From the NCBI GenBank assembly GCA_965372715.1, contig CBDVDH010000023.1:1-51180 (forward strand): 51,180 nt of DNA, read 5' to 3'. The notes under the pieces are model-generated. The model was not told the origin of the DNA, searched no databases, and saw nothing but the letters and a program-made list of their open reading frames with translations. How positions within the stretch are numbered: the first letter of the stretch is position 1; each line of letters opens with the position of its first letter. The position numbers and the translations under genes are program-made. Of this stretch, positions 2,091 through 40,889 are shown piece by piece. The DNA is from an uncultured bacterium (GTDB lineage: Bacteria; B130-G9).

Positions 2091-2255
2091 GAAGCTGGGT
2101 CATAAGTCGATTGCGGTTGTGTAAGGGCGTGGTCTCAGACCCGCCCTTTCGAATTGATGGTCGCATAAGATGCCTCGTATCCGCAGGAATTCATGTAGGC
2201 GGGCGGGTCTGAGACACCGCCCCTACAGGCTGATGCCGACAATCGCGGCGTTAAG
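2091..2255 (+). mobile_element. Truncated copy of the REP-targeting MITE (left TIR plus internal REPIN)
   Basis: GAAGCTGGGTCATAA at 2091, then ~160 nt closely matching 35149-35315; preceded by REP half-arm and loop GGGACGGGCT-TTCC; no right TIR seen. Confidence 0.8.
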
Positions 2256-19442: not shown

Positions 19443-21467
19443 TCAGGGGAGGGTTACGTCGAGCGGTTTGGCGGGGTTGCCGGCTCTGTCAGATGCCTTA
19501 ATGAGAAGCCTGTGCCTGCCTCGCGGGCGACTCAGGTTGAACCTGCCCTTCAGGAGCTTGCGGTCGGGGTCGTATTCCGCGTCGATCTCGACCCCGTCAA
19601 TTGTGGCGACTACTGTTCTATAGTCGATGCCCGAGCCGGCGTCGGTGATTCTCGCGACGAGGCGATTGCCTGTTTTGCGGAGGCGAGCGCTGGATTTGGG
19701 CTCCAGCAGGCTGATCTGCGGAGGCGCCTTGTCAACTAGCAGCCCGAACGTCGAGAGATAGGGCACGCCGTATCCGACCGACCTCTCAGAGAACCGCTCG
19801 GCGCCGCGATACTTCCATCTCGATCTCTTCGCGTTGTATTCATAGACACCGCATCGGACGATGTCCTTCTCAGGCAAATCACTCGGGCAGTCAAACGACA
19901 CAATCACTTCCTTCTCAAGCGGGATGCCTTCCGGGAGCACTTTACGGACGAGGCCCGAAACGACCGGCACGCCGGGAATCTCCTTTGCCGGGACCTCAAC
20001 GACCTCGAATATCTGGTCGCCGTAGAGGGCATCGGGCGGGAACTCAACCCTCAATCCATTTGCCTGCAAAATCCCGCCGCCTTTGGGCATGATACAGACA
20101 CCGGTCTCGGTCGTCCTCCACGCAATGGCGTCATCCGCGCTGCGTGCAACCGACAGGCTTATCTGCCCTTGGAGGCGCCCATCGACCGGAAGGCACGCGG
20201 ACAGCCAATCCTCGCCTCGCTCGACTGGCGTGAGCGTCAGCTTCTGCCCGGACCCGCCTTTGGCGACGAGTTGCACGGTCTCGGCCCAACTTGGCGCCTC
20301 GTTTTCGGGCCTTTGCAGCCAGACCTCGGCGAAGTCGTCCCAGACCTGAACCAGCGGCGCCCGTTTGGCTTGATGTCGTTTCACAAGCCTGAGAGGCGGT
20401 TTGTCTTGCCCAGGCGGTTGAGGCGCGGATTGGACGTGGATTTCGGCGGTGGAGCAATTGCCCGCGTCGTCCCAGGCCTTGACGGTGAGTGTGTGCGGTC
20501 CTAACTGATTCGAGAAGCCGAGTATCCCTCGGTTATGGGATGAGAGCTCCCAGGGGTTTTGTGCGCCATATCTGTTGTGGAGGCTCAGAACATAGCTCGG
20601 CGGCGAGAAGTAGGCATACTGGTTGTCGAAGACAAGGCCGCCTCGGTGACTGCTCTTGCCGTATTCAAACTCATCGAAACGCATCGCATAGACGAGCTGG
20701 TTGTCTGCAAAGAGCTCCAGTTTGTGCACGGCGCAATGGTTGCCGGCGCTGACTGTGTCAAAGACGTTGGCCAGAACCACAAACTCTCCTGAGACCGCGG
20801 GTTTTCTTTTGCCGCGATAGCCCCGGCGTGACTTCGTGAGCCAGACGTCAACGTCGTCGTGTTGTCCGTCAACCAGCGAGTTAGGCCCCAGCGGGCGAAG
20901 GATGAGCCTCTTGATCACAGGCGCACTGCGGTCTTTCTGTTTGAAGATAGAGAGCGGATTTATTGGCTTGGTCTCGCCGCGGCGCAGCTCGAAATGCAGG
21001 TGAGGGAAACCATAGCCGGTCTCGCCGGAGTAGCCAATCGTTTGGCCCTTCTTGACGGGCACGGAGATGAAGATATCGCCGGGGTAGCGCTCGCCGGTTT
21101 CTTTTCTTTTTCTCGCAACCACGTCTTCGAGGCCCAGCCGGCGGTTCTCGAACCCATCTAGGTGCCCATAGACCGAGATCAGGCCATCGGGATGGCGGAT
21201 GTAGAGCGCCTTTCCGAACCCGCGATAGTTGACTGAAAGACGATAGATGACGCCGTCGCCTATCGCGCGGACCCTGAGGCCGGTAACTGTCGCAGTCCTG
21301 AGGTCAATCCCGGTGTGCAGCCTCGTCCTGCGATACTCGCCGAACGTCCCGCTGAGCCCAAATCTCCTCGTTAGCGGCCAGACGTATTCGCCCTTGGCCG
21401 AGGCGCGGGTGGGGAAGAGGGCGAACAAGAGCAGAGCTGTGAGAGCAAGATGTATAGTCGATCTCAA
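19443..21467 (-). CDS. Secreted M23 family metallopeptidase with C-terminal Ig-like extensions
   Basis: Signal peptide; FGEYR..RLHTGIDL, YGHL, GYSGETG...PHLHFE..PINP; start moved to TTG 21467 (RBS AAGGA) because the ORF-track extension is REPIN. Confidence 0.88.
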   Translation of the reverse strand: MRSTIHLALTALLLFALFPTRASAKGEYVWPLTRRFGLSGTFGEYRRTRLHTGIDLRTATVTGLRVRAIGDGVIYRLSVNYRGFGKALYIRHPDGLISVYGHLDGFENRRLGLEDVVARKRKETGERYPGDIFISVPVKKGQTIGYSGETGYGFPHLHFELRRGETKPINPLSIFKQKDRSAPVIKRLILRPLGPNSLVDGQHDDVDVWLTKSRRGYRGKRKPAVSGEFVVLANVFDTVSAGNHCAVHKLELFADNQLVYAMRFDEFEYGKSSHRGGLVFDNQYAYFSPPSYVLSLHNRYGAQNPWELSSHNRGILGFSNQLGPHTLTVKAWDDAGNCSTAEIHVQSAPQPPGQDKPPLRLVKRHQAKRAPLVQVWDDFAEVWLQRPENEAPSWAETVQLVAKGGSGQKLTLTPVERGEDWLSACLPVDGRLQGQISLSVARSADDAIAWRTTETGVCIMPKGGGILQANGLRVEFPPDALYGDQIFEVVEVPAKEIPGVPVVSGLVRKVLPEGIPLEKEVIVSFDCPSDLPEKDIVRCGVYEYNAKRSRWKYRGAERFSERSVGYGVPYLSTFGLLVDKAPPQISLLEPKSSARLRKTGNRLVARITDAGSGIDYRTVVATIDGVEIDAEYDPDRKLLKGRFNLSRPRGRHRLLIKASDRAGNPAKPLDVTLP

Positions 21468-21500: not shown

Positions 21501-21664
21501 TGTAGGGGCGGTGCTTGCCCCGCCCTCTCTGATGTGACGGAATGTATGAAGGGTGCGGCAAGCGGCACCCCTACACACCGATTCCGATGAAGGGCGGGTC
21601 AGAGACCACGCCCCTACACAACCGCAATGGCTTATGACCCAGCCTCCAAGCCCCTGCCCCTACA
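21501..21664 (-). repeat. REPIN plus truncated MITE left end inserted after a REP loop
   Basis: REPIN 21502-21574 whose spacer matches 35428-35453; MITE-homologous segment 21589-21646 ending in TIR TTATGACCCAGCCTC, then CAAG and REP half CCCCTGCCCCTACA. Confidence 0.82.
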
Positions 21665-31888: not shown

Positions 31889-33139
31889 CTACCTCTCAGC
31901 TCTGCTGCGGCGATACTCTAACCACCTCGAGAGTGTGCAGCCCGCGAAGAGACACACGTACGGGTAGAGCGAGATGCTGTACCTTGACAGCGATCGGGTT
32001 AGGACATAGCCAGCCCAGAAATAAAGCAGCAAGAGAATGGTCAGCAGTGCGAGCCGCCCGCTGACGCCTCTGCAAGAAAAGACCGCAGCGAGCGCGAGGA
32101 GCACGTAAACCGAGTTCTGTAAAACACTTGTCCAGACGATCGTGCGTGCCCACCTCGGGCCGATTACAGAATCGTAAGCGATGTTGTTGATCAGCGTCAG
32201 TCTCGGGTAATCGACAAAGATAACGCTGGTTTTGAGGACGGCGCGCCTCGGCAAGTCAGACAGGTTCTCGATGAAGATCCGCTTTCCCTCGCTACGGAAG
32301 TAGTTGTTTTTCTCGATCCAATTCATTCCCTCGATTTTTCTGAGTATCTCAGGAGCCAGCGCGGGTTGTGCGATGCCGTTGAACGGGGCAATCTCTTGGT
32401 AGTTGCCGGTCAAGAAATTGAAGCCAAATAGCGTCCCCGTCGGGACGAAAGCGTCATATCGAACGTAATTCCTGATCGTCCACGGCGCCATGATGGCCAA
32501 GAACCCGGCCAGCGCGACGGCAGACAGCGTGACTCGGCGCCCTATCGATGCTCCTCTTGTGGTGAGTATCAAAAAAACCACCAGAACTATGACCAATTGC
32601 GCCGCAGCCTTGCAGAGAGTGGCAAGGCCCAGAACCATGCCAGCGATGATCGCCCATAACGCGCTCTGACGCTCCAATAACCTCAGGATGGTGAGGAATG
32701 ATACGCCGACGAGCAGCGCAAAGAGCGTGTCTGGATAAAGCACGCCGCAGTGAACGATAGACGGCAGATGCAGGGCGAGCAGCAGGGCCCCGGCGAACGC
32801 CGCCCACCTGTCCCTCAAATACCGCTGTCCGACCAGGAATATGAGCGCTGAAAGGAGCGTTGAGGCGAGGATCTGCGCAGCCACGACCGCCATCTGAGAT
32901 GTGCCAAAGACCTTGTAGATCGCCGCGATGAAATGGCCATAAACTGGAACCCTTATGGGAAGCTCTGGCTCGCCCGCGGGTAGAGTATCAAGGGCTCGTC
33001 CGGCGAGGATGTTCCTGGCCATGACATCGTATTCGTGTGCGTCGAGAATGGCTGGCGGAATCCCAAAACACCAGACAAAGAGCATCCTTGCGCCAAGTGC
33101 GGCAAGGACGATCACCCATAGAGCCGAGCTTGTCTTCAT
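31889..33139 (-). CDS. GT-C (ArnT/PMT-like) membrane glycosyltransferase
   Basis: LDAHEYD.MA.NI..G, RVPVY..F, PWTIRNY, GFNFLTGN, RYS..LYP; multi-TM. Confidence 0.85.
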   Translation of the reverse strand: MKTSSALWVIVLAALGARMLFVWCFGIPPAILDAHEYDVMARNILAGRALDTLPAGEPELPIRVPVYGHFIAAIYKVFGTSQMAVVAAQILASTLLSALIFLVGQRYLRDRWAAFAGALLLALHLPSIVHCGVLYPDTLFALLVGVSFLTILRLLERQSALWAIIAGMVLGLATLCKAAAQLVIVLVVFLILTTRGASIGRRVTLSAVALAGFLAIMAPWTIRNYVRYDAFVPTGTLFGFNFLTGNYQEIAPFNGIAQPALAPEILRKIEGMNWIEKNNYFRSEGKRIFIENLSDLPRRAVLKTSVIFVDYPRLTLINNIAYDSVIGPRWARTIVWTSVLQNSVYVLLALAAVFSCRGVSGRLALLTILLLLYFWAGYVLTRSLSRYSISLYPYVCLFAGCTLSRWLEYRRSRAER

Positions 33140-34974
33140 TTGGCCCCACTGGTCTCAACGGAGAGTTGCCTTTTGAAGACATAAATCGGCCACTTATGCC
33201 AGATTAGGTCGAAGCCGGCCAGTCTCCCCGTCTGCTTCACCTCATCAATCACCGGCGTCTCCCACCAAGCGGTGATCTTCTCCAAGTCAACGACCGCGTA
33301 TTCTACACCGCCCGGCGCCAGTGCGTTCTCGCCCAGGAAATACACCTCATTTCGCGACGCCAGGTGCGCCAGCATGTAACGAGGCGCTGTCGCGGGCACA
33401 TTGGGCGGAATCATGGCGAGCGACTTCTTCTGTGCCTCGAAATATGGTTCCTTGTTCATTTTGAAGGCGCCCCACCACATCGGGATGTAGCATATCGCGA
33501 TGAGGAGGATGAGCGTCGATAGTGCGATTGACAGCACGCGCCGCCTTGAGCCGGCGAGTCGGGAAATGGTCAGTGCGGTTGCGGGTCCGAGAAACGATGA
33601 CGGAAGGATGCCGTAATGGAAGGGTATTGGGACTTCCCAGTTCATCAGGCCGGAGACGACGAAGGCCGGGAGCAGGCCCATCAGCGCGTAAGCGCTCCCG
33701 AAAGGCAGCAAGAAGAAGAACGGTGCGAATAGATAGAAGATGAACTCCTGCTTCTGAGCCTGTGCGAAGTTGCCGAAAAGAACGGACGGATCGTGTAACG
33801 CTTTGAGGGCGAGGTCAGAGATTGAGCGGATGTATGGATATCGCACGACCATCATGTTGTCGGGGGCGCGAAATATCGGAAATAGGATGACGAAGACTAG
33901 TATCAGCCACAGAATGTTCACTACGGCAGGAGCGACGACCCATTTCTTTGGTCTTCTCTGGACGAGCGCCAGACCCGCAAACAGGAGCATGATAAACGGC
34001 ACGTTCTCCTTTAGCCCGCTGCAAAGCACCATGAATGTGATGAACCAGCCAAAGCGCCTCGTCTCGAAGAAGTAAATGGTGAACGGAACGAGGAACGTGG
34101 CGAACACGACCGGATGGAAACCGGTGTAGTTCTGGGCGATTGCCGTCGGGATCAGAAGATACGCGGTCGTGAGCAGGAAGCTCTCAAGAGCCTTGAGGCG
34201 AGTCCTGGCGACAAGGAAAAACGGTATCGCCGCGAGCCCCATCACGACGGTCTTGAATACCAGAAACACGGCGGCAGTCCTGAAGATCAGGAAGAATGGT
34301 AGTATGAGGAGCTTGATCGGCGCGAAGTGGTCGCCGATGAGTTCGTAGGTCTGGCTGCCGGATTGTGTGTGCAGCCTCGAGAGGAGGAAATGCCCCTGCG
34401 AAACGCTGTATTGAGGGGCTGTGAATCTCGACAGGTCATGCCAGTTGCCGAAGATATAGAAATCCCACAGCCCGGTGATAAGGAAAAACACCACGTAAAG
34501 CACGACAATTGTGCCAAGCAACTTGCGACTGTGGCGGTCTGTGAAGCAGTCGATTCGCTCTCGGAAGCTCGGGTTGACGGTCCCACGGATGAAGAGGTAG
34601 CCGGCGAGTATCAGGCCGAAGAGAAAGACCTTTGGCCCGAGGCGCTGGACGTAAGACGAGAAATACGTGTTCAACGAGGTCGCAAATCGCGGGATCAGAA
34701 GCGGGACCGCGAGGAGCATTAACGCCGGCAAGAACGACAGGATATAATCCCTTTGTGAAGTCTCCGCAAGAGAAATGTCGAAGGAGCGAGAAGTCGCGAG
34801 GTAGAATCCGACGGCCAGGATTCCTCCTACTACCGCGAAGATGGAGATTCTGAGGGCGGAATTCAACGAATCACACACGCCGGGGAAAAAGCCAGCGAGA
34901 TAAGCCCCCACTATGGTCCCAGCGAGAGCCGGAATCGCCCAAGAGAATGCCTTTCGGGAACCGTCATTAGGCAT
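33136..34974 (-). CDS. DUF2079 family membrane protein (predicted GT-C fold)
   Basis: HDLSRF, GDHFAPI, GFHPV, LKEN, multi-TM, LAHLASR..Y; ATGA overlap with the downstream gene. Confidence 0.78.
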   Translation of the reverse strand: MPNDGSRKAFSWAIPALAGTIVGAYLAGFFPGVCDSLNSALRISIFAVVGGILAVGFYLATSRSFDISLAETSQRDYILSFLPALMLLAVPLLIPRFATSLNTYFSSYVQRLGPKVFLFGLILAGYLFIRGTVNPSFRERIDCFTDRHSRKLLGTIVVLYVVFFLITGLWDFYIFGNWHDLSRFTAPQYSVSQGHFLLSRLHTQSGSQTYELIGDHFAPIKLLILPFFLIFRTAAVFLVFKTVVMGLAAIPFFLVARTRLKALESFLLTTAYLLIPTAIAQNYTGFHPVVFATFLVPFTIYFFETRRFGWFITFMVLCSGLKENVPFIMLLFAGLALVQRRPKKWVVAPAVVNILWLILVFVILFPIFRAPDNMMVVRYPYIRSISDLALKALHDPSVLFGNFAQAQKQEFIFYLFAPFFFLLPFGSAYALMGLLPAFVVSGLMNWEVPIPFHYGILPSSFLGPATALTISRLAGSRRRVLSIALSTLILLIAICYIPMWWGAFKMNKEPYFEAQKKSLAMIPPNVPATAPRYMLAHLASRNEVYFLGENALAPGGVEYAVVDLEKITAWWETPVIDEVKQTGRLAGFDLIWHKWPIYVFKRQLSVETSGAK

Positions 34975-35131: not shown

Positions 35132-35480
35132 TGTAGGGGCGGTGCTTGGAGGCTGGGTCGTAAGTCGTTGCGCTTGTGTAGGGGCGAGGTCTGAAGACCC
35201 GCCCTTTCGAATTGATGGTCGCATAAGATGCCTCGTATGCGCAGGGATTGATGTAGGCGGGCGGGTCTGAGACACCGCCCCTACAGGCCGATTCCGACAA
35301 TCGCGTCGCATAAGAAAACCGCCGCATTGATCTTGACAATCGGCAGTATCCCCTCTATCGTTGTTGTCTGATATGGACAACAAAACCCTCCTCAATCGAA
35401 TTATGACCCAGCCTCCTTGGCCCGCCCTTCATACGTTCGGTCACATCAGAGAAGGGCGGGGCAAACACAGTCACTACGAT
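35132..35480 (+). repeat. REPIN host split by the MITE insertion
   Basis: TGTAGGGGCGGTG-CTTG [MITE] CTTG-GCCCGCCC, spacer TTCATACGTTCGGTCACATCAGAGA, degenerate second REP; intact relative at 21502-21574. Confidence 0.8.
35149..35415 (+). mobile_element. 267-bp MITE with 15-bp TIRs and 4-bp target duplication
   Basis: GAGGCTGGGTCGTAA (35149-63) / TTATGACCCAGCCTC (35401-15), 14/15 inverted match; flanked by CTTG on both sides; internal REPIN; an extra orphan TIR at 35494-35508. Confidence 0.88.
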
Positions 35481-35549
35481 GCCCGACACGGGATTATGAC
35501 CCAGCCTCGTTGTCTCCTTCCGCCTTGCTCAGAAGTGCGCTCGCCTTGC

Positions 35550-36476
35550 CTACTCAGGGAAAAGCTTCTCGTGGATTGTTATTAGGGCGCCGGCTGATCT
35601 TGGCCCGGGCCTGGTCGTGAGGTCGGGGTCGAGGAGATAGACCCGGCCGTTCTTGACCGCGGGGACCTCCTGCCATCTCTTCAGCTGGCGGAGCTCTTCC
35701 AACAGCGCCTTTTGGCTCCCGTGTCCTGTCACCAGGATGACGTCGGGTGCTGAGGCGACGACCGTCTCGAGGCTCAGCCTCGGGTAGCGAATCGTGTATG
35801 CGCCGACAACGTTCGCGCCGCCGGCGGTCGCCACGAGCTCCCCGATGAACGTCTGGGCGCTCGCGCTGACGATTGGCTTGACGTCCAGCGCGACCAGAAC
35901 CTTCGGCCGGCCCTTCGTTCTGGCAAGCTTGTCCGCCTTCGATTTGATATGCTTGACCACCAGCTCGATGTTTCCTACGAGCTCTTTTGCCTTGTTCTCG
36001 TTTCTGAAGAGCTTCCCGAGCCGGCTGATCGACTGTATCAGCCCTTGCATGTTGTTCGGAAACACGCAGAAGACCGCGATGCCGAGCGATCTCAATCTCC
36101 TGATATCCGTCTCGGAGTTGCCGTCCATCGTTCCCACGGCGATGTCAGGGCTCAATGAAACGATCTTCTCGACGTTCAGGGCCGCAAACCCGCCGACCTT
36201 CGGCAGCCTATTGACGGCTGGTGGGTAGTTGCTGTAGCTGCTGACGCCGACCAGCTTGCTGCCAAGCCCCATTCCGCACAATATCTCGGTGAGGTTCGGC
36301 GCAAGCGAGACGATTCGCTGGGCGTCGGCCGGAACAGTCACGAGCGCGCCAGATGCGTCCTGAAGGCGAGCTGCGGCTGCGCCCTCTGCCGAAGACGGGA
36401 CAGCAAGCAGCGCCACGATCACGCCCAACGTGACCGTCAGCTTAAAGCATCCAGGTCGCCAAAGCCAACTCCTCAT
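35550..36476 (-). CDS. Cobalamin/iron-siderophore ABC substrate-binding protein (BtuF-like)
   Basis: RIVSLAPNLTEIL..G, VGVS.YSNYP, NVEKIVSLSPD, PAVKNGRVY, RPGPR; true start ATG 36476 (the longer ORF is pdxA antisense). Confidence 0.9.
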   Translation of the reverse strand: MRSWLWRPGCFKLTVTLGVIVALLAVPSSAEGAAAARLQDASGALVTVPADAQRIVSLAPNLTEILCGMGLGSKLVGVSSYSNYPPAVNRLPKVGGFAALNVEKIVSLSPDIAVGTMDGNSETDIRRLRSLGIAVFCVFPNNMQGLIQSISRLGKLFRNENKAKELVGNIELVVKHIKSKADKLARTKGRPKVLVALDVKPIVSASAQTFIGELVATAGGANVVGAYTIRYPRLSLETVVASAPDVILVTGHGSQKALLEELRQLKRWQEVPAVKNGRVYLLDPDLTTRPGPRSAGALITIHEKLFPE

Positions 36477-36483
36477 AGTATCG

Positions 36484-36511
36484 ATGATATAGTTTGCCAA
36501 CCCGGTGTCAA
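36484..36511 (-). promoter_or_regulatory. Sigma70 promoter, probably giving a leaderless btuF-like mRNA
   Basis: TTGACA, 16 nt, TATCAT ending 7 nt before the ATG; no SD sequence. Confidence 0.6.
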
Positions 36512-36560
36512 TAACCGCCCGCGGCGGGAGAAAGCTCGTGCTTGTTTGGGCAAGGTCAAA

Positions 36561-37607
36561 ATGATAGATTCCGAGTCCGATATGAAGGAACCAATCATTG
36601 CAATTACAATGGGCGATCCTGCCGGGATTGGACCGGAGGTCATCGTCAAGGCGCACCGCGAGCTTCTTGCTTCCCAGAGCACCATCAACAAGCTCGTCGT
36701 GGGCGATTTTGCGCTTCTTCAGGCCGTCTGCGAGGCGACCGGTTGCCGGGTTAGGCTCTCGCGAATAGAGGAGGCCGATGTAGTTCAGGTCCAGCGCCTC
36801 GTCCGCGACGATCCCGAAGCGCTGTTCGTAATCGATCTTGAAAACATTGAGCAGGATGTCCTGTGCTATGGGAAGCCGGACATGTTCACGGGGAAGGTGG
36901 CGATAGATTACATTGTACGCGCGCTGAGTTTCTGCAAGGCAGGCGCGGTTTCGGCCATCGTGACTGCGCCGGTCTCGAAGAAGGCTATCTGCGATGCTGG
37001 CGTGGCGTTCACGGGCCACACGGGGGTCATTGCCAGCGCCATGGGCGTCAGGGATTATGCGATGATGTTCGTGTGCAAAAAGCTGCGGGTTTTTCTTCTG
37101 ACTACGCACGTCCCGCTCTCCCAAGTCCCTGCCCACGTTACCCAGAAGAACGTGAGGCGCCTCATCTTTCTCGCGGAAAGGACTCTTACGAAGTTCTTTG
37201 GGATAAGAAGGCCCAAGATCGCCGTCTGCGGACTGAATCCGCACGCCGGCGAGGACGGCGCCATCGGTAGGGAAGAGCTTGCGGCAATTGTCCCTGCTAT
37301 GGCCTCCGTGCGGAAGGAGGACATAGACATTCGCGGTCCATTTGCCGCTGACGCACTTTTCGTTCCGGAACGTGCAGAGCAGTTCGACGCCATAATAGCC
37401 ATGTATCACGACCAGGGCCTGATCCCTGTCAAAATGACCGATTTCAGACACGCGGTGAACGTTACGGTTGGCCTGCCAGTGGTCCGTGTCTCAGTCTCGC
37501 ACGGAACAGCGAACGACATCGCTGGCAAATGGGTCGCTGACCCGACGAGCATGGTCGAATCGCTCAAGCTCGCAGACGCAATGACGCGGACGCTCTTGGC
37601 TGGCTAA
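36561..37607 (+). CDS. pdxA: 4-hydroxythreonine-4-phosphate dehydrogenase (PdxA family)
   Basis: IAITMGDPAGIGPE, TAPVSK, GHT, TTHVPL, GLNPHAGE, AMYHDQGLIPVK, SHGTA.DIAG; start 36561 or 36582. Confidence 0.95.
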   Translation: MIDSESDMKEPIIAITMGDPAGIGPEVIVKAHRELLASQSTINKLVVGDFALLQAVCEATGCRVRLSRIEEADVVQVQRLVRDDPEALFVIDLENIEQDVLCYGKPDMFTGKVAIDYIVRALSFCKAGAVSAIVTAPVSKKAICDAGVAFTGHTGVIASAMGVRDYAMMFVCKKLRVFLLTTHVPLSQVPAHVTQKNVRRLIFLAERTLTKFFGIRRPKIAVCGLNPHAGEDGAIGREELAAIVPAMASVRKEDIDIRGPFAADALFVPERAEQFDAIIAMYHDQGLIPVKMTDFRHAVNVTVGLPVVRVSVSHGTANDIAGKWVADPTSMVESLKLADAMTRTLLAG

Positions 37608-37654: not shown

Positions 37655-38464
37655 ATGAGTTCGTCGTTCAGGTCTTTTTTCCAGAAGAGCTGGGTGCAGG
37701 TTATAGCCCTCACCGTGTCCCTATGGGCTCTTGACCTAATGCAGCTTTCCGGAGACTTGTCAGGGGCATCGTTCCAGCTGGTCTTCGCGATGCTCGTGCC
37801 CCACATATTCAACGCAGCGCCCGCATTCGCCTCGGTATTCATCTATGTGTTGATGGCCGTGATCTCCAGCGCCTGCCAGTGGCCGATCACTGTTGGCGAG
37901 CCTCTGCCGATGATGGCGGTCCGACACTGTGCGCTGCTTCTGGCCGTCACGATTTCCCTGCTGTTCGTGAATAGAAGCCCAACGTGGCGCGCCAGAGCGC
38001 TATTCGTGGTCTATTACCTTGCGACCATCTACATCGCCGCCACCCACGTCTATGTCGCGCGAGTCGCCAATCCATATCTGGTCATCTGGCCAATTCTGCT
38101 AGTATTGCTTCCCGTTCTCATCATCTGGCGCCTCAGGCCCTTCGTGCCCAAGTTCTGGCAGATGGCGCCGGCGGTCGTGGTTTATATTCCGCTCAGATTC
38201 ATTGGCTACTGCCTGGTGACAACGTGCCAGCCCAGCGCCATCGCGGGATGGGCGATCTCGAAATGGGAACGGCTCTTTGAGCCAACTCTGTTGTTTGATG
38301 GCCTCGTCTTGCCGCTTGGACCATACGTCCTGATGGCGATGATCGCCGCCGTCGTGCTGACTTATCTTGGCGGCTGGGGCCTCCGCCGGCCCGATACCAA
38401 CGGAGGCGGGATTGTGGTCTCGGAGGTTGACGAGCAAAGCGGAGAGCACGATGATATGGCCTGA
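37655..38464 (+). CDS. Hypothetical multi-pass membrane protein
   Basis: Seven or eight hydrophobic segments, no recognised motif; start uncertain. Confidence 0.6.
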   Translation: MSSSFRSFFQKSWVQVIALTVSLWALDLMQLSGDLSGASFQLVFAMLVPHIFNAAPAFASVFIYVLMAVISSACQWPITVGEPLPMMAVRHCALLLAVTISLLFVNRSPTWRARALFVVYYLATIYIAATHVYVARVANPYLVIWPILLVLLPVLIIWRLRPFVPKFWQMAPAVVVYIPLRFIGYCLVTTCQPSAIAGWAISKWERLFEPTLLFDGLVLPLGPYVLMAMIAAVVLTYLGGWGLRRPDTNGGGIVVSEVDEQSGEHDDMA

Positions 38465-38480
38465 ATAAGGGCAGGTTGGC

Positions 38481-40889
38481 CTATTGGACCGAGGCCGGCG
38501 CCTCGGCCGCTGGCCGTACCTCAAGCATCACCACGTTTCGGGCCGGCGCGCTGAGCGTCAGCTCTGATGCGCCGCTCGACACAGCAATGCGCTCTCTTCT
38601 CGTGTGCGTTACGAGATCGACGCTGTATTTGCCCCGCAGATGGTATCGTGTGGGGTCAAACAGACACTTGATTGTCAGGTTCTTCTCAGAGATGTTTGCG
38701 AAAAAGAATCCCAGACGCACACCGGACGCCCAACCGGATGAGACAATGGCACGTGCTTTCACGACGCCGGACCGCGGGCTATCCTGCTCGGGGAAGACAT
38801 TGTAGTGGTCGTAATCCAGCAGAACCGTGGGGACCTCGGACACGATCTTGAGCGGACGGACCATACGTCCCCAGCAGAGAAACCGCCTACCAAACTCGAG
38901 CCTCGCCCGGGCCATCCGCCGCAGGAAGTCAAGATATGGTTTGTGCACCCGCTCGGGGCTCTTCTCCTCGACATATTCTGTCCAGTAATCATACGTAAGG
39001 TAATGGCTGGGTCCTTTTATGCCATCGAAGAGCTCCGTGGCGCTGAACTCATAGTTGAGCTCGAACACCGCGCCCCATAGATACACACGGGCGGCGATTA
39101 GATAGAATATGTCCCCGAAGCGGCGGCCAAGTTTCCCAAACCCGTCTAGCCTCACGGGGCCATATTCGTGATAGACGTAGTCGAACATTGGGATGCTCTC
39201 GATTGCCCCAGTCGGGTCGCCGGCCCACTCGAAGGCGCCCTGAACGCCCGCCATCGCGCGGCTCTGGCAGAAGTCGATGACGTCGATGAAGTTCTCGGTT
39301 ATCACCTCCGTTCCGATCGGCACGCGCTGCCCTCCCTTTTGAGCCGCGCACGCCTCGTGTGAGCGCTGGAGCAGCTCGCGGTAGTTCTCGATCATATAGG
39401 CCCCCTTGCCTCCGACTGGGTGCCCATGATCCGAGTTCTTGCAGGAAAGAGGCGCCGCACAGCAGACGGAGGTATCATTATAGAGAGCGTTACACGCAAA
39501 GTCCGGCGCCGAGACAAGTGTCCGGTCCCTCAGAGCATAGAAGTCCGCCCAATCAGCCGATGCGGGGCACATCCAGACCTTCTTCTTGCCACCGTCGATA
39601 AACTCATGTCCTGTGGACCCGGCCTTGAGCTTCGGAAAGTCCCGAGCAACCGTTGAAAGCCACAGATCAACTTTGAACACAGCAAACTTGCTCCCCGATT
39701 CTCTGATGGCACGCACGTTGGCGGGGTTCGACCACATCTTCTCAACGTCCTCCCAAGCCGCATCCGAGGCGCTGTTGTCGTTTGTTTCCCAATCGAAGCC
39801 AAGAATATGGAAAACCGGGACACCCATCGCGCTTTGCATAGTCTTCAACCACGCCGCCTCATCGCGGCGGCAGCTGATCCCGAACGTTGCCACGCCAATC
39901 CTTTCTTGAAGCCATCTTGCGCACTGCCTATCGGATTGCGTGCGCTTGGGCCCGTTCTGACACCACACGGGTGCGCCAGGCCCCTTCGACGTGACCCACG
40001 CGCGATAGAGCTCCGCCCCCTCATACCAATCCCCCTCGCGCGTTGCGGCGAGAACGACCGGATACCCGAACGACTCACGCGGCCCGTCCTTCCCTGGCAG
40101 CTGTTCCTCGACGTAGTGGACGAGGCGCATCTCCAGGTAGTCCGTGCCGAGCGGGCGGTAGAAGTTGAGCTCTTTTATCGTGTGTGCCGGGTCATGGCAG
40201 CCGAAGTAGAACCCGCCCTGGGTCTCATCATAGAAGGCCATGAACTGCATCGGACAGCCGTAGTATCCGTCTGGGTATTCGCTGTGAACGAACCGGGCCT
40301 GGTAGTTGTCCACCTTTTCGGGGCGCAGCGTGTTGAGCGGGTCACGCACCAGCAGCCCCGATGCGGATGGGTGGGCGAGGAAATCATCGTCGGAAGTATC
40401 CCCCAAGGCGGTCATACCGGAGAGGATGGGAAAGACCAAGGCGCGAATATCGGACCCACGCGAGGAGCGCAAAGTGGGCGTCAGGGCAATGGCGCCCGAT
40501 TTAGCGACCGAGACTTCGATCCGCACCTCGGCTTCGACCTCTGGAAATCGGAAGACCTGCGATCCGACTGCATCGTCGCTCGATAAGACGCTGAATCCGT
40601 TAGGGCCGGAGGGATTGATCACGGAGCCATCGCGCAGCACGAGAGAGCAGACTGGCTCTTTCCCTTTGTTGCTGAAGAGGTCTAGGCCAGTCAAGAGATT
40701 CGTGACCTGAAGGAAAGCGCCGGTTGCGGTATCAAACTCGATCGATAGGGCTGGGGTCTCAATCGTCAGTGTGTTGCGACCGGCCGGGGCAGCTGAATCG
40801 ATAGGAGAACGGTCGCATGAAACGATCAGTCCCGACAAATGTAATGTAAAGAGCAGAACCGCAACGGACGGTAAGCGTCTCATTCGCAT
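38481..40889 (-). CDS. Lipoprotein, DUF6259-like putative glycoside hydrolase
   Basis: Lipobox IVSC; YP....PMQFMAFY, GDWYEGA..YR.W, MCPAS..W, C....HGHP.G.G, IP.FDYVYHEY. Confidence 0.65.
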   Translation of the reverse strand: MRMRRLPSVAVLLFTLHLSGLIVSCDRSPIDSAAPAGRNTLTIETPALSIEFDTATGAFLQVTNLLTGLDLFSNKGKEPVCSLVLRDGSVINPSGPNGFSVLSSDDAVGSQVFRFPEVEAEVRIEVSVAKSGAIALTPTLRSSRGSDIRALVFPILSGMTALGDTSDDDFLAHPSASGLLVRDPLNTLRPEKVDNYQARFVHSEYPDGYYGCPMQFMAFYDETQGGFYFGCHDPAHTIKELNFYRPLGTDYLEMRLVHYVEEQLPGKDGPRESFGYPVVLAATREGDWYEGAELYRAWVTSKGPGAPVWCQNGPKRTQSDRQCARWLQERIGVATFGISCRRDEAAWLKTMQSAMGVPVFHILGFDWETNDNSASDAAWEDVEKMWSNPANVRAIRESGSKFAVFKVDLWLSTVARDFPKLKAGSTGHEFIDGGKKKVWMCPASADWADFYALRDRTLVSAPDFACNALYNDTSVCCAAPLSCKNSDHGHPVGGKGAYMIENYRELLQRSHEACAAQKGGQRVPIGTEVITENFIDVIDFCQSRAMAGVQGAFEWAGDPTGAIESIPMFDYVYHEYGPVRLDGFGKLGRRFGDIFYLIAARVYLWGAVFELNYEFSATELFDGIKGPSHYLTYDYWTEYVEEKSPERVHKPYLDFLRRMARARLEFGRRFLCWGRMVRPLKIVSEVPTVLLDYDHYNVFPEQDSPRSGVVKARAIVSSGWASGVRLGFFFANISEKNLTIKCLFDPTRYHLRGKYSVDLVTHTRRERIAVSSGASELTLSAPARNVVMLEVRPAAEAPASVQ

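Follow-up and report, generated by a model that had tools for sequence, protein, structure and literature searches.

A miniature element with IS1182-type ends and a REP cargo within a split REP palindrome of an uncultured bacterium

How can a repetitive extragenic palindromic (REP) sequence be divided at its very center, with its four central bases standing on both sides of the segment that separates its arms? This question is raised by a locus on contig CBDVDH010000023.1 of an uncultured bacterium, which was analyzed over its full 51,180 nt as “the window.” Coordinates given without a contig name are those of the forward strand of the window, which is contig C23 of the source assembly G000 (3.56 Mb in 112 contigs, 95.9% complete). 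The segment at positions 35149 to 35415 is very probably a MITE (miniature inverted-repeat transposable element) originating from an insertion sequence (IS) of the IS1182 family, which was inserted at the center of a REP palindrome with duplication of the four central bases. It is short, comprising 267 bp with an interior of 237 nt between two terminal inverted repeats (TIRs), its TIRs resemble those of an autonomous IS, it is flanked by a 4-nt duplication as is the candidate parent (CTTG/CTTG versus GGAA/GGAA), and its copies are dispersed in the genome. A first-pass annotation of this DNA, made from the sequence alone, had described a REP arm, two copies of CTTG, the TIRs, the 237-nt interior, and an intact REP at 21502, and all of these positions and strings were found to be exact (Table 1).

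The split palindrome belongs to a REP class designated REP-a, and the interior of the MITE contains REPs of another class, REP-c, arranged as a REPIN (REP doublet forming a hairpin). Folded as single-stranded DNA, the intact REP-a forms a 6-bp stem with the 8-nt loop TGCTTGCC, so that CTTG represents the central 4 nt of the palindrome and would be a 4-nt loop only if a T.C mismatch were tolerated. The annotation had taken CTTG for the 4-nt loop of the REP, which is right for the central position but not for the loop in the strict sense. Other REP classes, with the loops TTCC, CACG, or CAGG, have 8-bp stems, and here the duplicated 4 nt are the entire loop. The TIR motif occurred five times in the window at up to two mismatches, versus 0.09 times expected, and none of 100 shuffled sequences reached this number. 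The only open frames in the MITE are those running across the repeat.

The window element is a member of a large family. Up to two mismatches being allowed, 114 TIR termini were present in the genome, and more diverged variants, for example GAGGCTGTCCAATAA, lie beyond that count. The sequences inward of the termini fell into an A-end cluster (n = 32), composed of the TIR, a 14-nt linker, and a GTAG-headed REP, into a B-end cluster (n = 21), and into several smaller subfamilies, where REPs of other classes come 14 to 17 nt after an identical TIR. Sixteen complete copies with an A and a B end were found, with a median pairwise identity of 0.90 (range, 0.68 to 0.97). Column conservation over these copies was 0.91 inside the element, 0.63 to 0.72 in the 12 nt outside, and 0.48 to 0.58 farther out, in agreement with the non-autonomous element that the annotation had proposed. 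The sister genome G001, which belongs to the same genus and matches the window locus at 96%, contained 54 matches to the MITE.

To characterize the insertion sites, each plus-strand terminus was paired with the next minus-strand terminus at a distance of 100 to 320 bp, with a total of at most four mismatches, and an intact IS described below was added, resulting in 24 pairs. Perfect 4-nt direct repeats flanked 10 of them, and the chance of such a 4/4 match is about 1 in 256. Eight different repeats were involved, CAGG, TTCC (twice), TCCC, TTCT, GGAA (twice), CCTG, CTTG, and CAAG. In 7 of the 10 duplicated pairs, the arms, being the 8 nt outside the repeat, were complementary at six or more of eight positions. 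Two further pairs scored 3/4 with a terminus one base shorter (AGCCTGGG...), and their alignment shows TTCC on both sides. Beyond the mismatch limit, a copy on contig C65 was flanked by GGCC/GGCC within the non-REP palindrome ATCCCGGCCGGATT, and one on C64 was flanked by GGAA/cGGAA.

The single termini point in the same direction. At 59 of all 114, the outward 12 nt were identical, with at most one mismatch, to an arm plus the loop of a GC-rich 8-4-8 hairpin that is intact elsewhere in the genome. When the termini themselves were limited to one mismatch, 55 of 84 abutted half of an intact hairpin, compared to 35 of 3000 random positions. Intact targets are abundant, with 92 exact occurrences of REP-a (GGGGCGGTGCTTGCCCCGCCC) and 133 at up to two mismatches, 13 and 103, respectively, of the class REP-b (GGCAGGCTTTCCAGCCTGCC), and 283 GTAG-type hairpins with 4-nt loops, mainly CTTG, CACG, and TTCC, in a rough catalogue. 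The annotation had suggested tabulating the flanks of all copies in the genome, and random flanks with no loop duplication would have spoken against its proposal; this outcome was not observed. Insertion into REP loops with duplication of the loop agrees instead with the copies that have different loops, with the roughly 100 or more intact paralogous REPs per main class, and with empty sites at orthologous positions.

Such empty alleles were seen in both directions between the two sister genomes. The site of the intact IS on contig C5 of G000 is empty in G001, which reads ...GGCAGGCT GGAA AGCCCGCC... (...ctttggcaggct GGAA agcccgcc...) where G000 has GGAA, the IS, and again GGAA. Conversely, three MITE copies of G001 stand opposite to empty sites in G000. 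Copy L025 (TTCC/TTCT) corresponds to the empty site C21:7853, copy L017 to an intact GGCAGGCC ACCG CGCCTGCC at C4:~93230, and copy L022 to an empty, degenerate REP-b at C8:~18795, with one junction base unclear. In the case of L017, ACCG is present at both junctions and is the center of a 6-nt loop. The MITE family is thus polymorphic in presence and absence between G000 and G001, albeit not at the window copy itself. REP-rich spacers in this lineage turn over fast between sister species. Around the window locus, the flanking genes in the more distant relatives G002 to G006 match at 69 to 78%, but the spacer could not be aligned and yielded no orthologous REP. For the G000 copy at C3:37087, the two flanks are located on different contigs of G001.

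Which IS could have provided the ends? The annotation had guessed the IS1182 family and advised a search for an autonomous IS with these TIRs, and this search returned as sole intact candidate parent an IS1182-family element with matching ends. It is located on contig C5 at positions 32081 to 33904 and contains in 1824 bp a single open reading frame for a 509-aa protein (P0001). P0001 scored 297.6 bits with the NCBIfam model transpos_IS1182 (NF033551; cut-off, 270) over profile positions 2 to 487 of 488 and contained the Pfam domains DUF772 (PF05598; 69.5 bits), DDE_Tnp_1 (PF01609; 53.4 bits), and DDE_Tnp_1_6 (PF13751; 50.0 bits), with DUF772 in the N-terminal part and the DDE domain in the C-terminal part as in other members of the family. 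Judged by its open transposase frame and the fully covered family profile, the C5 element is an intact member of the IS1182 family. No second full copy is present in the assembly, which contains in addition a 186-bp fragment on C17. Two other candidates for a full-length IS, C29:32369-33863 and C8:46754-48238, were rejected as ordinary genes between chance or unrelated termini.

The ends of the C5 IS, GAGGCTGTCCCATAAGTC and GAGGCAGGGTCATAAGTCGTTG, are 15-nt inverted repeats that agree at 12 of 15 positions, and the MITE ends are GAGGCTGGGTCGTAAGTCGTTG and GAGGCTGGGTCATAATTCG. The match between IS and MITE ends extends over 18 to 22 nt, with 18 of 19 positions at the end of the C64 copy and 20 of 22 at the A end of the window copy. 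The IS resides in the GGAA loop of GGCAGGCT/AGCCTCCC, has this GGAA duplicated, and does not contain a REP in its interior. A 67% identical IS in genome G004 likewise sits in a hairpin loop, GGTGGGCT TTCG AGCCCGCC, with TTCG duplicated, and a 58% identical IS in G003 (L082) has inverted flanks. All transposase homologues in the five relatives searched were fragments or carried a stop.

The C5 transposase may be the enzyme that moves the MITE, and not a lost cousin of it, since the ends match over such a length and since the insertion polymorphism between G000 and G001 indicates activity after the split. An alternative is that the MITEs were spread by a now-decayed IS1182-family relative and that the C5 IS is a recent arrival with similar ends. 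The C5 IS exists as a single copy and is absent from its site in G001, the MITE copies are old and diverged with many of them common to G001, and termini of the broken cousins in the relatives, GAGGCTGTCCAATAA and GAGGCTGTGCCATAA, were found on MITE-like units in G000, too. This alternative, which concerns the source of the enzyme and leaves the insertion itself as it is, is possible although rather unlikely.

In the mechanism proposed, a DDE transposase acting in trans, for which the 509-aa protein of the C5 IS as the sole intact candidate in the assembly would be the source, would bind the 15- to 19-nt TIRs and join the element to a GC-rich palindrome by cutting around the dyad with a 4-bp stagger. 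Repair would then leave the four central (loop) bases on both sides, with the arms of the hairpin pushed apart. At the window locus, this palindrome would be a REP-a unit, and the REPIN to which it belongs adjoins an older solo TIR. The interior of the MITE being a REPIN of the other class, REP-c, each transposition would also copy two REP hairpins. Recognition may depend on the shape or symmetry of the palindrome rather than on the REP sequence, and copies without a duplication probably arose through later rearrangement.

Several points weigh against this explanation. No transposition was observed. The window MITE is present at the orthologous locus in G000 as well as in G001, which indicates that its insertion predates the split of the two. 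In 4 of 19 public runs that hold part of the stretch, no contig bridges positions 35148 to 35416: in the runs X1 to X3, the flanks run into the MITE, representing the filled state, and two short loose ends in run X5 resemble an intact REP-a but could stem from any of about 100 paralogues. The window copy being without an empty allele, its insertion is deduced from the scars and the paralogues. Among the 24 pairs, the 4-nt flanks were inverted in 4 (for instance TTCC...GGAA), and no repeat was found in 8, so that with 10 duplicated pairs, or 12 when the register shift is considered, half of the copies need a secondary event. At three duplicated sites (on C4, C22, and C56), fewer than six of eight arm positions were complementary in the 8-4-8 register, indicating that a hairpin is not strictly required or is formed in another register. 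The ends of the C5 IS differ from the MITE consensus at 1 to 3 of 15 positions, the assembly holds only this one intact IS, and G001 has polymorphic MITEs yet only transposase fragments.

Table 1. Features of the split REP-a locus, related features elsewhere in the window, and one-TIR units on other contigs
Feature	Position	Strand	Remarks
REP-a head (GTAG) and left arm, TGTAGGGGCGGTG	35132..35144	+	String continues as intact hairpin at 21502
Target-site duplication, copy 1, CTTG	35145..35148	+	Center of the REP-a palindrome
Left TIR (A end), GAGGCTGGGTCGTAA, 15 nt	35149..35163	+	Agrees with the intact IS at its right end, GAGGCAGGGTCATAAGTCGTTG, and on through the next 7 nt
Subterminal linker, 14 nt	35164..35177	+	Between TIR and cargo REP; end-A cluster, n = 32
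Cargo REPIN-c, 108 nt	35178..35285	+	REP-c 35178-35204, spacer, inverted REP-c 35259-35285
MITE B part, non-coding	35286..35400	+	Small AT-richer hairpin
Right TIR (B end)	35401..35415	-	Plus strand TTATGACCCAGCCTC, minus strand GAGGCTGGGTCATAA
Target-site duplication, copy 2, CTTG	35416..35419	+	
Right arm of the split REP-a, GCCCGCCC	35420..35427	+	Differs once from the usual CCCCGCCC
Second, degenerate REP-a of the target REPIN	35454..35477	-	Minus-strand GTAGTGACTGTGTTTGCCCCGCCC
Solo TIR of an older one-ended element	35494..35508	-	Its cargo is the REPIN-a whose other REP took the 267-bp MITE
Intact paralogous REP-a, GTAGGGGCGGTGCTTGCCCCGCCC	21502..21525	+	Empty-site look-alike
A-end TIR of another one-ended copy	21632..21646	-	Abuts a REP-a-like half (...GGGGCAGGGGCTTG up to the junction)
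Further copy without a second TIR	2091..2227	+	A-end TIR, linker, REPIN-c (2121-2227), truncated B part
One-TIR units ending at CTAC(A)	C14:7180, C39:3785, C45:15568, C49:24466, C55:10528, C57:14558, C66:13618, C53:14417		

Several kinds of copies do not fit simply. Inverted flanks were seen at C12:56662-56927, C12:62620-62883, C24:39130, and C52:2593 and at the IS of G003. These copies are bracketed by the outer arms of both REPs of a REPIN, and the element replaces the stretch between the two loops; both C12 blocks are missing in G001. Such an arrangement would result if two insertions had taken place and the copies had then recombined with each other. Another kind comprises 13 units with REPIN-c and a TIR at the A end only. 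At least 8 of the 12 that were examined end exactly at the CTAC(A) of the REPIN, with unrelated sequence thereafter and without a duplication, and the copy at the start of the window (2091-2227) is a related, truncated case. This fixed end lies at the foot of the long hairpin formed by the REPIN and, at the same time, at the GTAG tag. Locus L031 of G001 is a one-TIR unit opposite to an intact REP in G000.

The arrangement of TIR and cargo was also conspicuous. Counted from the inner TIR edge, the next GTAG REP head was 14 to 17 nt away in 66 of the 72 termini with a head within 60 nt, and subfamilies that differ in linker and REP class have this spacing in common. In one orthologous pair, C44:16560-16750 of G000 and L035:1440-1680 of G001, the flanks and the TIR are shared, and the linker and REPIN, located between the stop codon of a gene and the TIR, come from different subfamilies. 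Half-elements and the swapped cassette may result from deletions starting at the foot of the REPIN hairpin together with recombination among copies, or from the action of a REP system.

That the MITE carries a REP cargo, as the annotation had stated, is confirmed by the fold of a complete REPIN and by its relatives in the genome. The cargo at 35178 to 35285 consists of two inverted REP hairpins with the conserved GTAG head, which fold together as one long hairpin (-30.2 kcal/mol; z = -5.66; none of 200 shuffled sequences as good). Fifty-two similar 108-nt units exist in the genome. Complete MITEs account for 17 of them, a TIR is present only at the A end in 13 and only at the B end in 3, and the remaining 19 lack a TIR at up to three mismatches. 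Six of the latter have a more diverged TIR, and the other approximately 13 are mostly 71 to 80% identical to the cargo.

REPs are linked to REP-associated tyrosine transposases (RAYTs) of the HUH type, and two RAYT-like genes were found. The first, on C18 at 38017 to 38613 (L091:318-914), scored 74.4 bits with NF047646, which was its best-scoring family and has a cut-off of 80; the second, on C58 (L092:219-929), reached 65.4 bits, likewise below that cut-off. REP-a REPINs lie on either side of the C18 gene (37841-37994 and 38624-38741), and GTAG REPs of the GTAGGGGCGTAT... class flank the C58 gene. Both genes carry in-frame REP copies, two of them in the C18 gene, and their match to the RAYT model is split into two stretches. 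Four genes with the Pfam domain Y1_Tnp were discarded as RAYTs: they score as IS200/IS605 (59.6 to 76.1 bits; cut-off, 55) and have no GTAG REP within 450 bp. The link to RAYTs drawn in the annotation stands in so far as a RAYT-like gene is flanked by the target class REP-a; a score above the NCBIfam cut-off was not reached. Its further idea, that the element couples a DDE-type with a HUH-type mobilization system, was not demonstrated. A nested arrangement, with the target REP being itself the cargo of another element, was seen at 2 of the 114 termini, one of them the window locus, and no RAYT cognate to the cargo class REP-c was found in the 95.9%-complete assembly, the two RAYT-like genes being flanked by other REP classes.

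A two-way relation between both systems is nevertheless hinted at by the constant distance between TIR and GTAG, by the one-TIR units ending at CTAC, and by the orthologous difference in cassettes. In such a relation, the DDE element lands in REP loops, as is shown, and a RAYT-type system would place or exchange REPIN cassettes of several REP classes 14 to 17 nt inside the TIR. This is doubtful. If true, it would give rise to modular MITEs, composed of TIR plus REPIN, that carry fresh landing pads for their own kind.

Another alternative gives the leading role to the HUH (RAYT-type) system, by which the TIR, linker, and REPIN would be moved or remodeled, with cassettes inserting next to the TIR on its inner side and with cleavage at GTAG/CTAC as the source of one-TIR units. 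The spacing across subfamilies, the precise CTAC(A) ends without duplication, the one orthologous TIR with different cassettes in G000 and G001, and the presence of RAYT-like genes flanked by GTAG REPs would all agree with it. It is very unlikely as a replacement for insertion by a DDE transposase, because a complete copy has a TIR at either end and 4-nt duplications, which are not made by HUH transposition, because the intact IS shares these ends and this target but contains no REP, and because REPs interrupt the two RAYT-like genes, neither of which reaches the cut-off. Among the 433 REP heads that lack a TIR, ATAA was present 14 to 16 nt upstream in only 24 (less than 6%), most of which were diverged TIRs. 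This, too, speaks against the HUH alternative, and ATAA was likewise rejected as a general target sequence for all REPINs.

That the “MITE” together with the 4 nt and the REP halves makes up a fixed composite repeat in the manner of a bacterial interspersed mosaic element, copied as a block by recombination or a REP system without any insertion into a REP, can hardly be maintained, although many copies share a larger repeat (REPIN-b, “X” context ...gactctcgtcggtgtggggcaggctTTCC / agcctgccaaagacagggtctcgcgc) and the two C12 copies have the same unusual flanks with the whole block missing in G001, because the element is flanked by at least eight tetranucleotides and by several unrelated hairpin classes including the non-REP palindrome on C65, because conservation declines from inside the element to beyond the arms, and because orthologous sites in the sister genome hold an intact hairpin with a single loop copy, which already contradicts this explanation and the concern of the annotation that no empty REP allele might exist.

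The duplicated copies in REP targets showed a preferred orientation. As judged by eye, the REP-bearing A end was adjacent to the GTAG/GTGT-headed arm in 9 of 10 MITE copies with an identifiable REP head, C56:7236 being the exception, and the intact IS also has an A-like end on the side of the GTAG/GTGT arm. Many of the oriented sites come from one REPIN-b family and are perhaps not independent. REP-b forms also tandem arrays with a 27-nt period, with four copies at C14:31064-31170 and another array at C58:~21070-21125. Some terminus variants (C6:68798, C12:56913, C48:24181, and C110:2114; L017 in G001) start with (C)AGCCTGGG in place of GAGGCTGGG, and here the right REP arm AGCCTGCC seems to run directly into the TIR. 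The tip of the TIR and the REP-b arm have AGGCT/AGCCT in common.

The host spacer of the window MITE is located between two minus-strand genes, for a Peripla_BP_2-domain protein (35550-37451) and for a DUF2079 membrane protein (33136-34974). A sigma-70-like match on the plus strand, at 35333 to 35361 (TTGACA, 17 nt, TATCGT; 10 of 12 positions), lies in the B part of the MITE and points to the B end; one such match was present versus 0.4 expected. For many contigs of G000, a MITE terminus lies no more than about 150 nt from the contig end, which indicates that the MITE and REP repeats break the assembly, and the window itself ends inside a REP-b composite repeat (50983 and 51154). In public contigs from three salt-marsh runs, the summed depth over the REPIN-c core (window 35192-35314) was 100 to 200 times that of the flanks, and it was far lower over the TIR-proximal parts of the MITE; these depths sum all organisms and are not copy numbers.

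The biological meaning of the locus lies in a well-documented natural case in which a DDE transposase selects the tip of a palindrome, probably by shape or symmetry over sequence, and for which the intact parent, numerous derivatives, and empty sites at orthologous positions are all available. It lends itself to the question of how hairpins are read by the transposases of IS1182 elements, and of why the loop is duplicated by some members while IS1272 deletes the hairpin. In addition, a transposase that is not their RAYT can increase the number of REP hairpins, which matters when counts of REPs or REPINs are used to assess RAYT activity. The current understanding is not changed, and the separate behaviors are already in print: hairpin targeting by IS1182 elements, IS1182-type MITEs with 4-bp repeats, and REPs as targets of IS have all been published before. 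A description of REPIN cargo in a MITE was not found in a limited search of the open-access literature, which does not show that it is unpublished.

According to the sections of PMC5678879 and PMC4923244 on IS1272 and TnSha1, which belong to the IS1182 family of staphylococci, these elements target stem-loops or inverted repeats with little requirement for the primary sequence, and either paper refers to Siguier et al. 2015 with regard to the palindromic targets of the family. In the model of Fig. 13 in PMC5678879, attack at the borders of the loop duplicates only the loop. As described there, IS1272 and TnSha1 delete or replace the hairpin without a duplication, whereas the window element keeps both arms, duplicates the four central bases, and belongs to a family that targets mostly genomic REPs and not terminators. 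Comparable in architecture is MITEPye1, related to ISPye18, of Paracoccus yeei, which is reported in the relevant passages of PMC11578231 as gene-less and intergenic with IS1182-type TIRs, 4-bp direct repeats, and a long stem-loop fold, all of which are likewise features of the window MITE. It differs by its one to three copies per chromosome, and those passages do not mention hairpin or REP targets or a REP cargo.

REPs or palindromic units as preferred sites are described for IS1397 and ISKpn1 of the IS3 family and for members of the IS110, IS4, IS256, IS5, and IS481 families (portions of PMC1525189, PMC3184786, and PMC11708052). These elements use other transposases and another chemistry, with DEDD enzymes and guide RNAs in the IS110 types, and unlike the window element, none of them is described in those portions as a REP-carrying MITE. 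The MITE “Chunjie” was dismissed as a precedent for REP targeting, since it has 9-bp repeats and the part of PMC3184786 dealing with it mentions no REP target. With the REPINs and RAYTs of PMC3116915, PMC3333891, PMC2817692, and PMC3733652, the window element shares the inverted pair of GTAG hairpins folding as one and, in its target class REP-a, the position next to a RAYT-like gene. In contrast to ordinary REPINs, the cargo REPIN is enclosed by TIRs of the DDE type and by a target duplication, so that the recent copies look as if they had been made by a DDE transposase and not by a RAYT.

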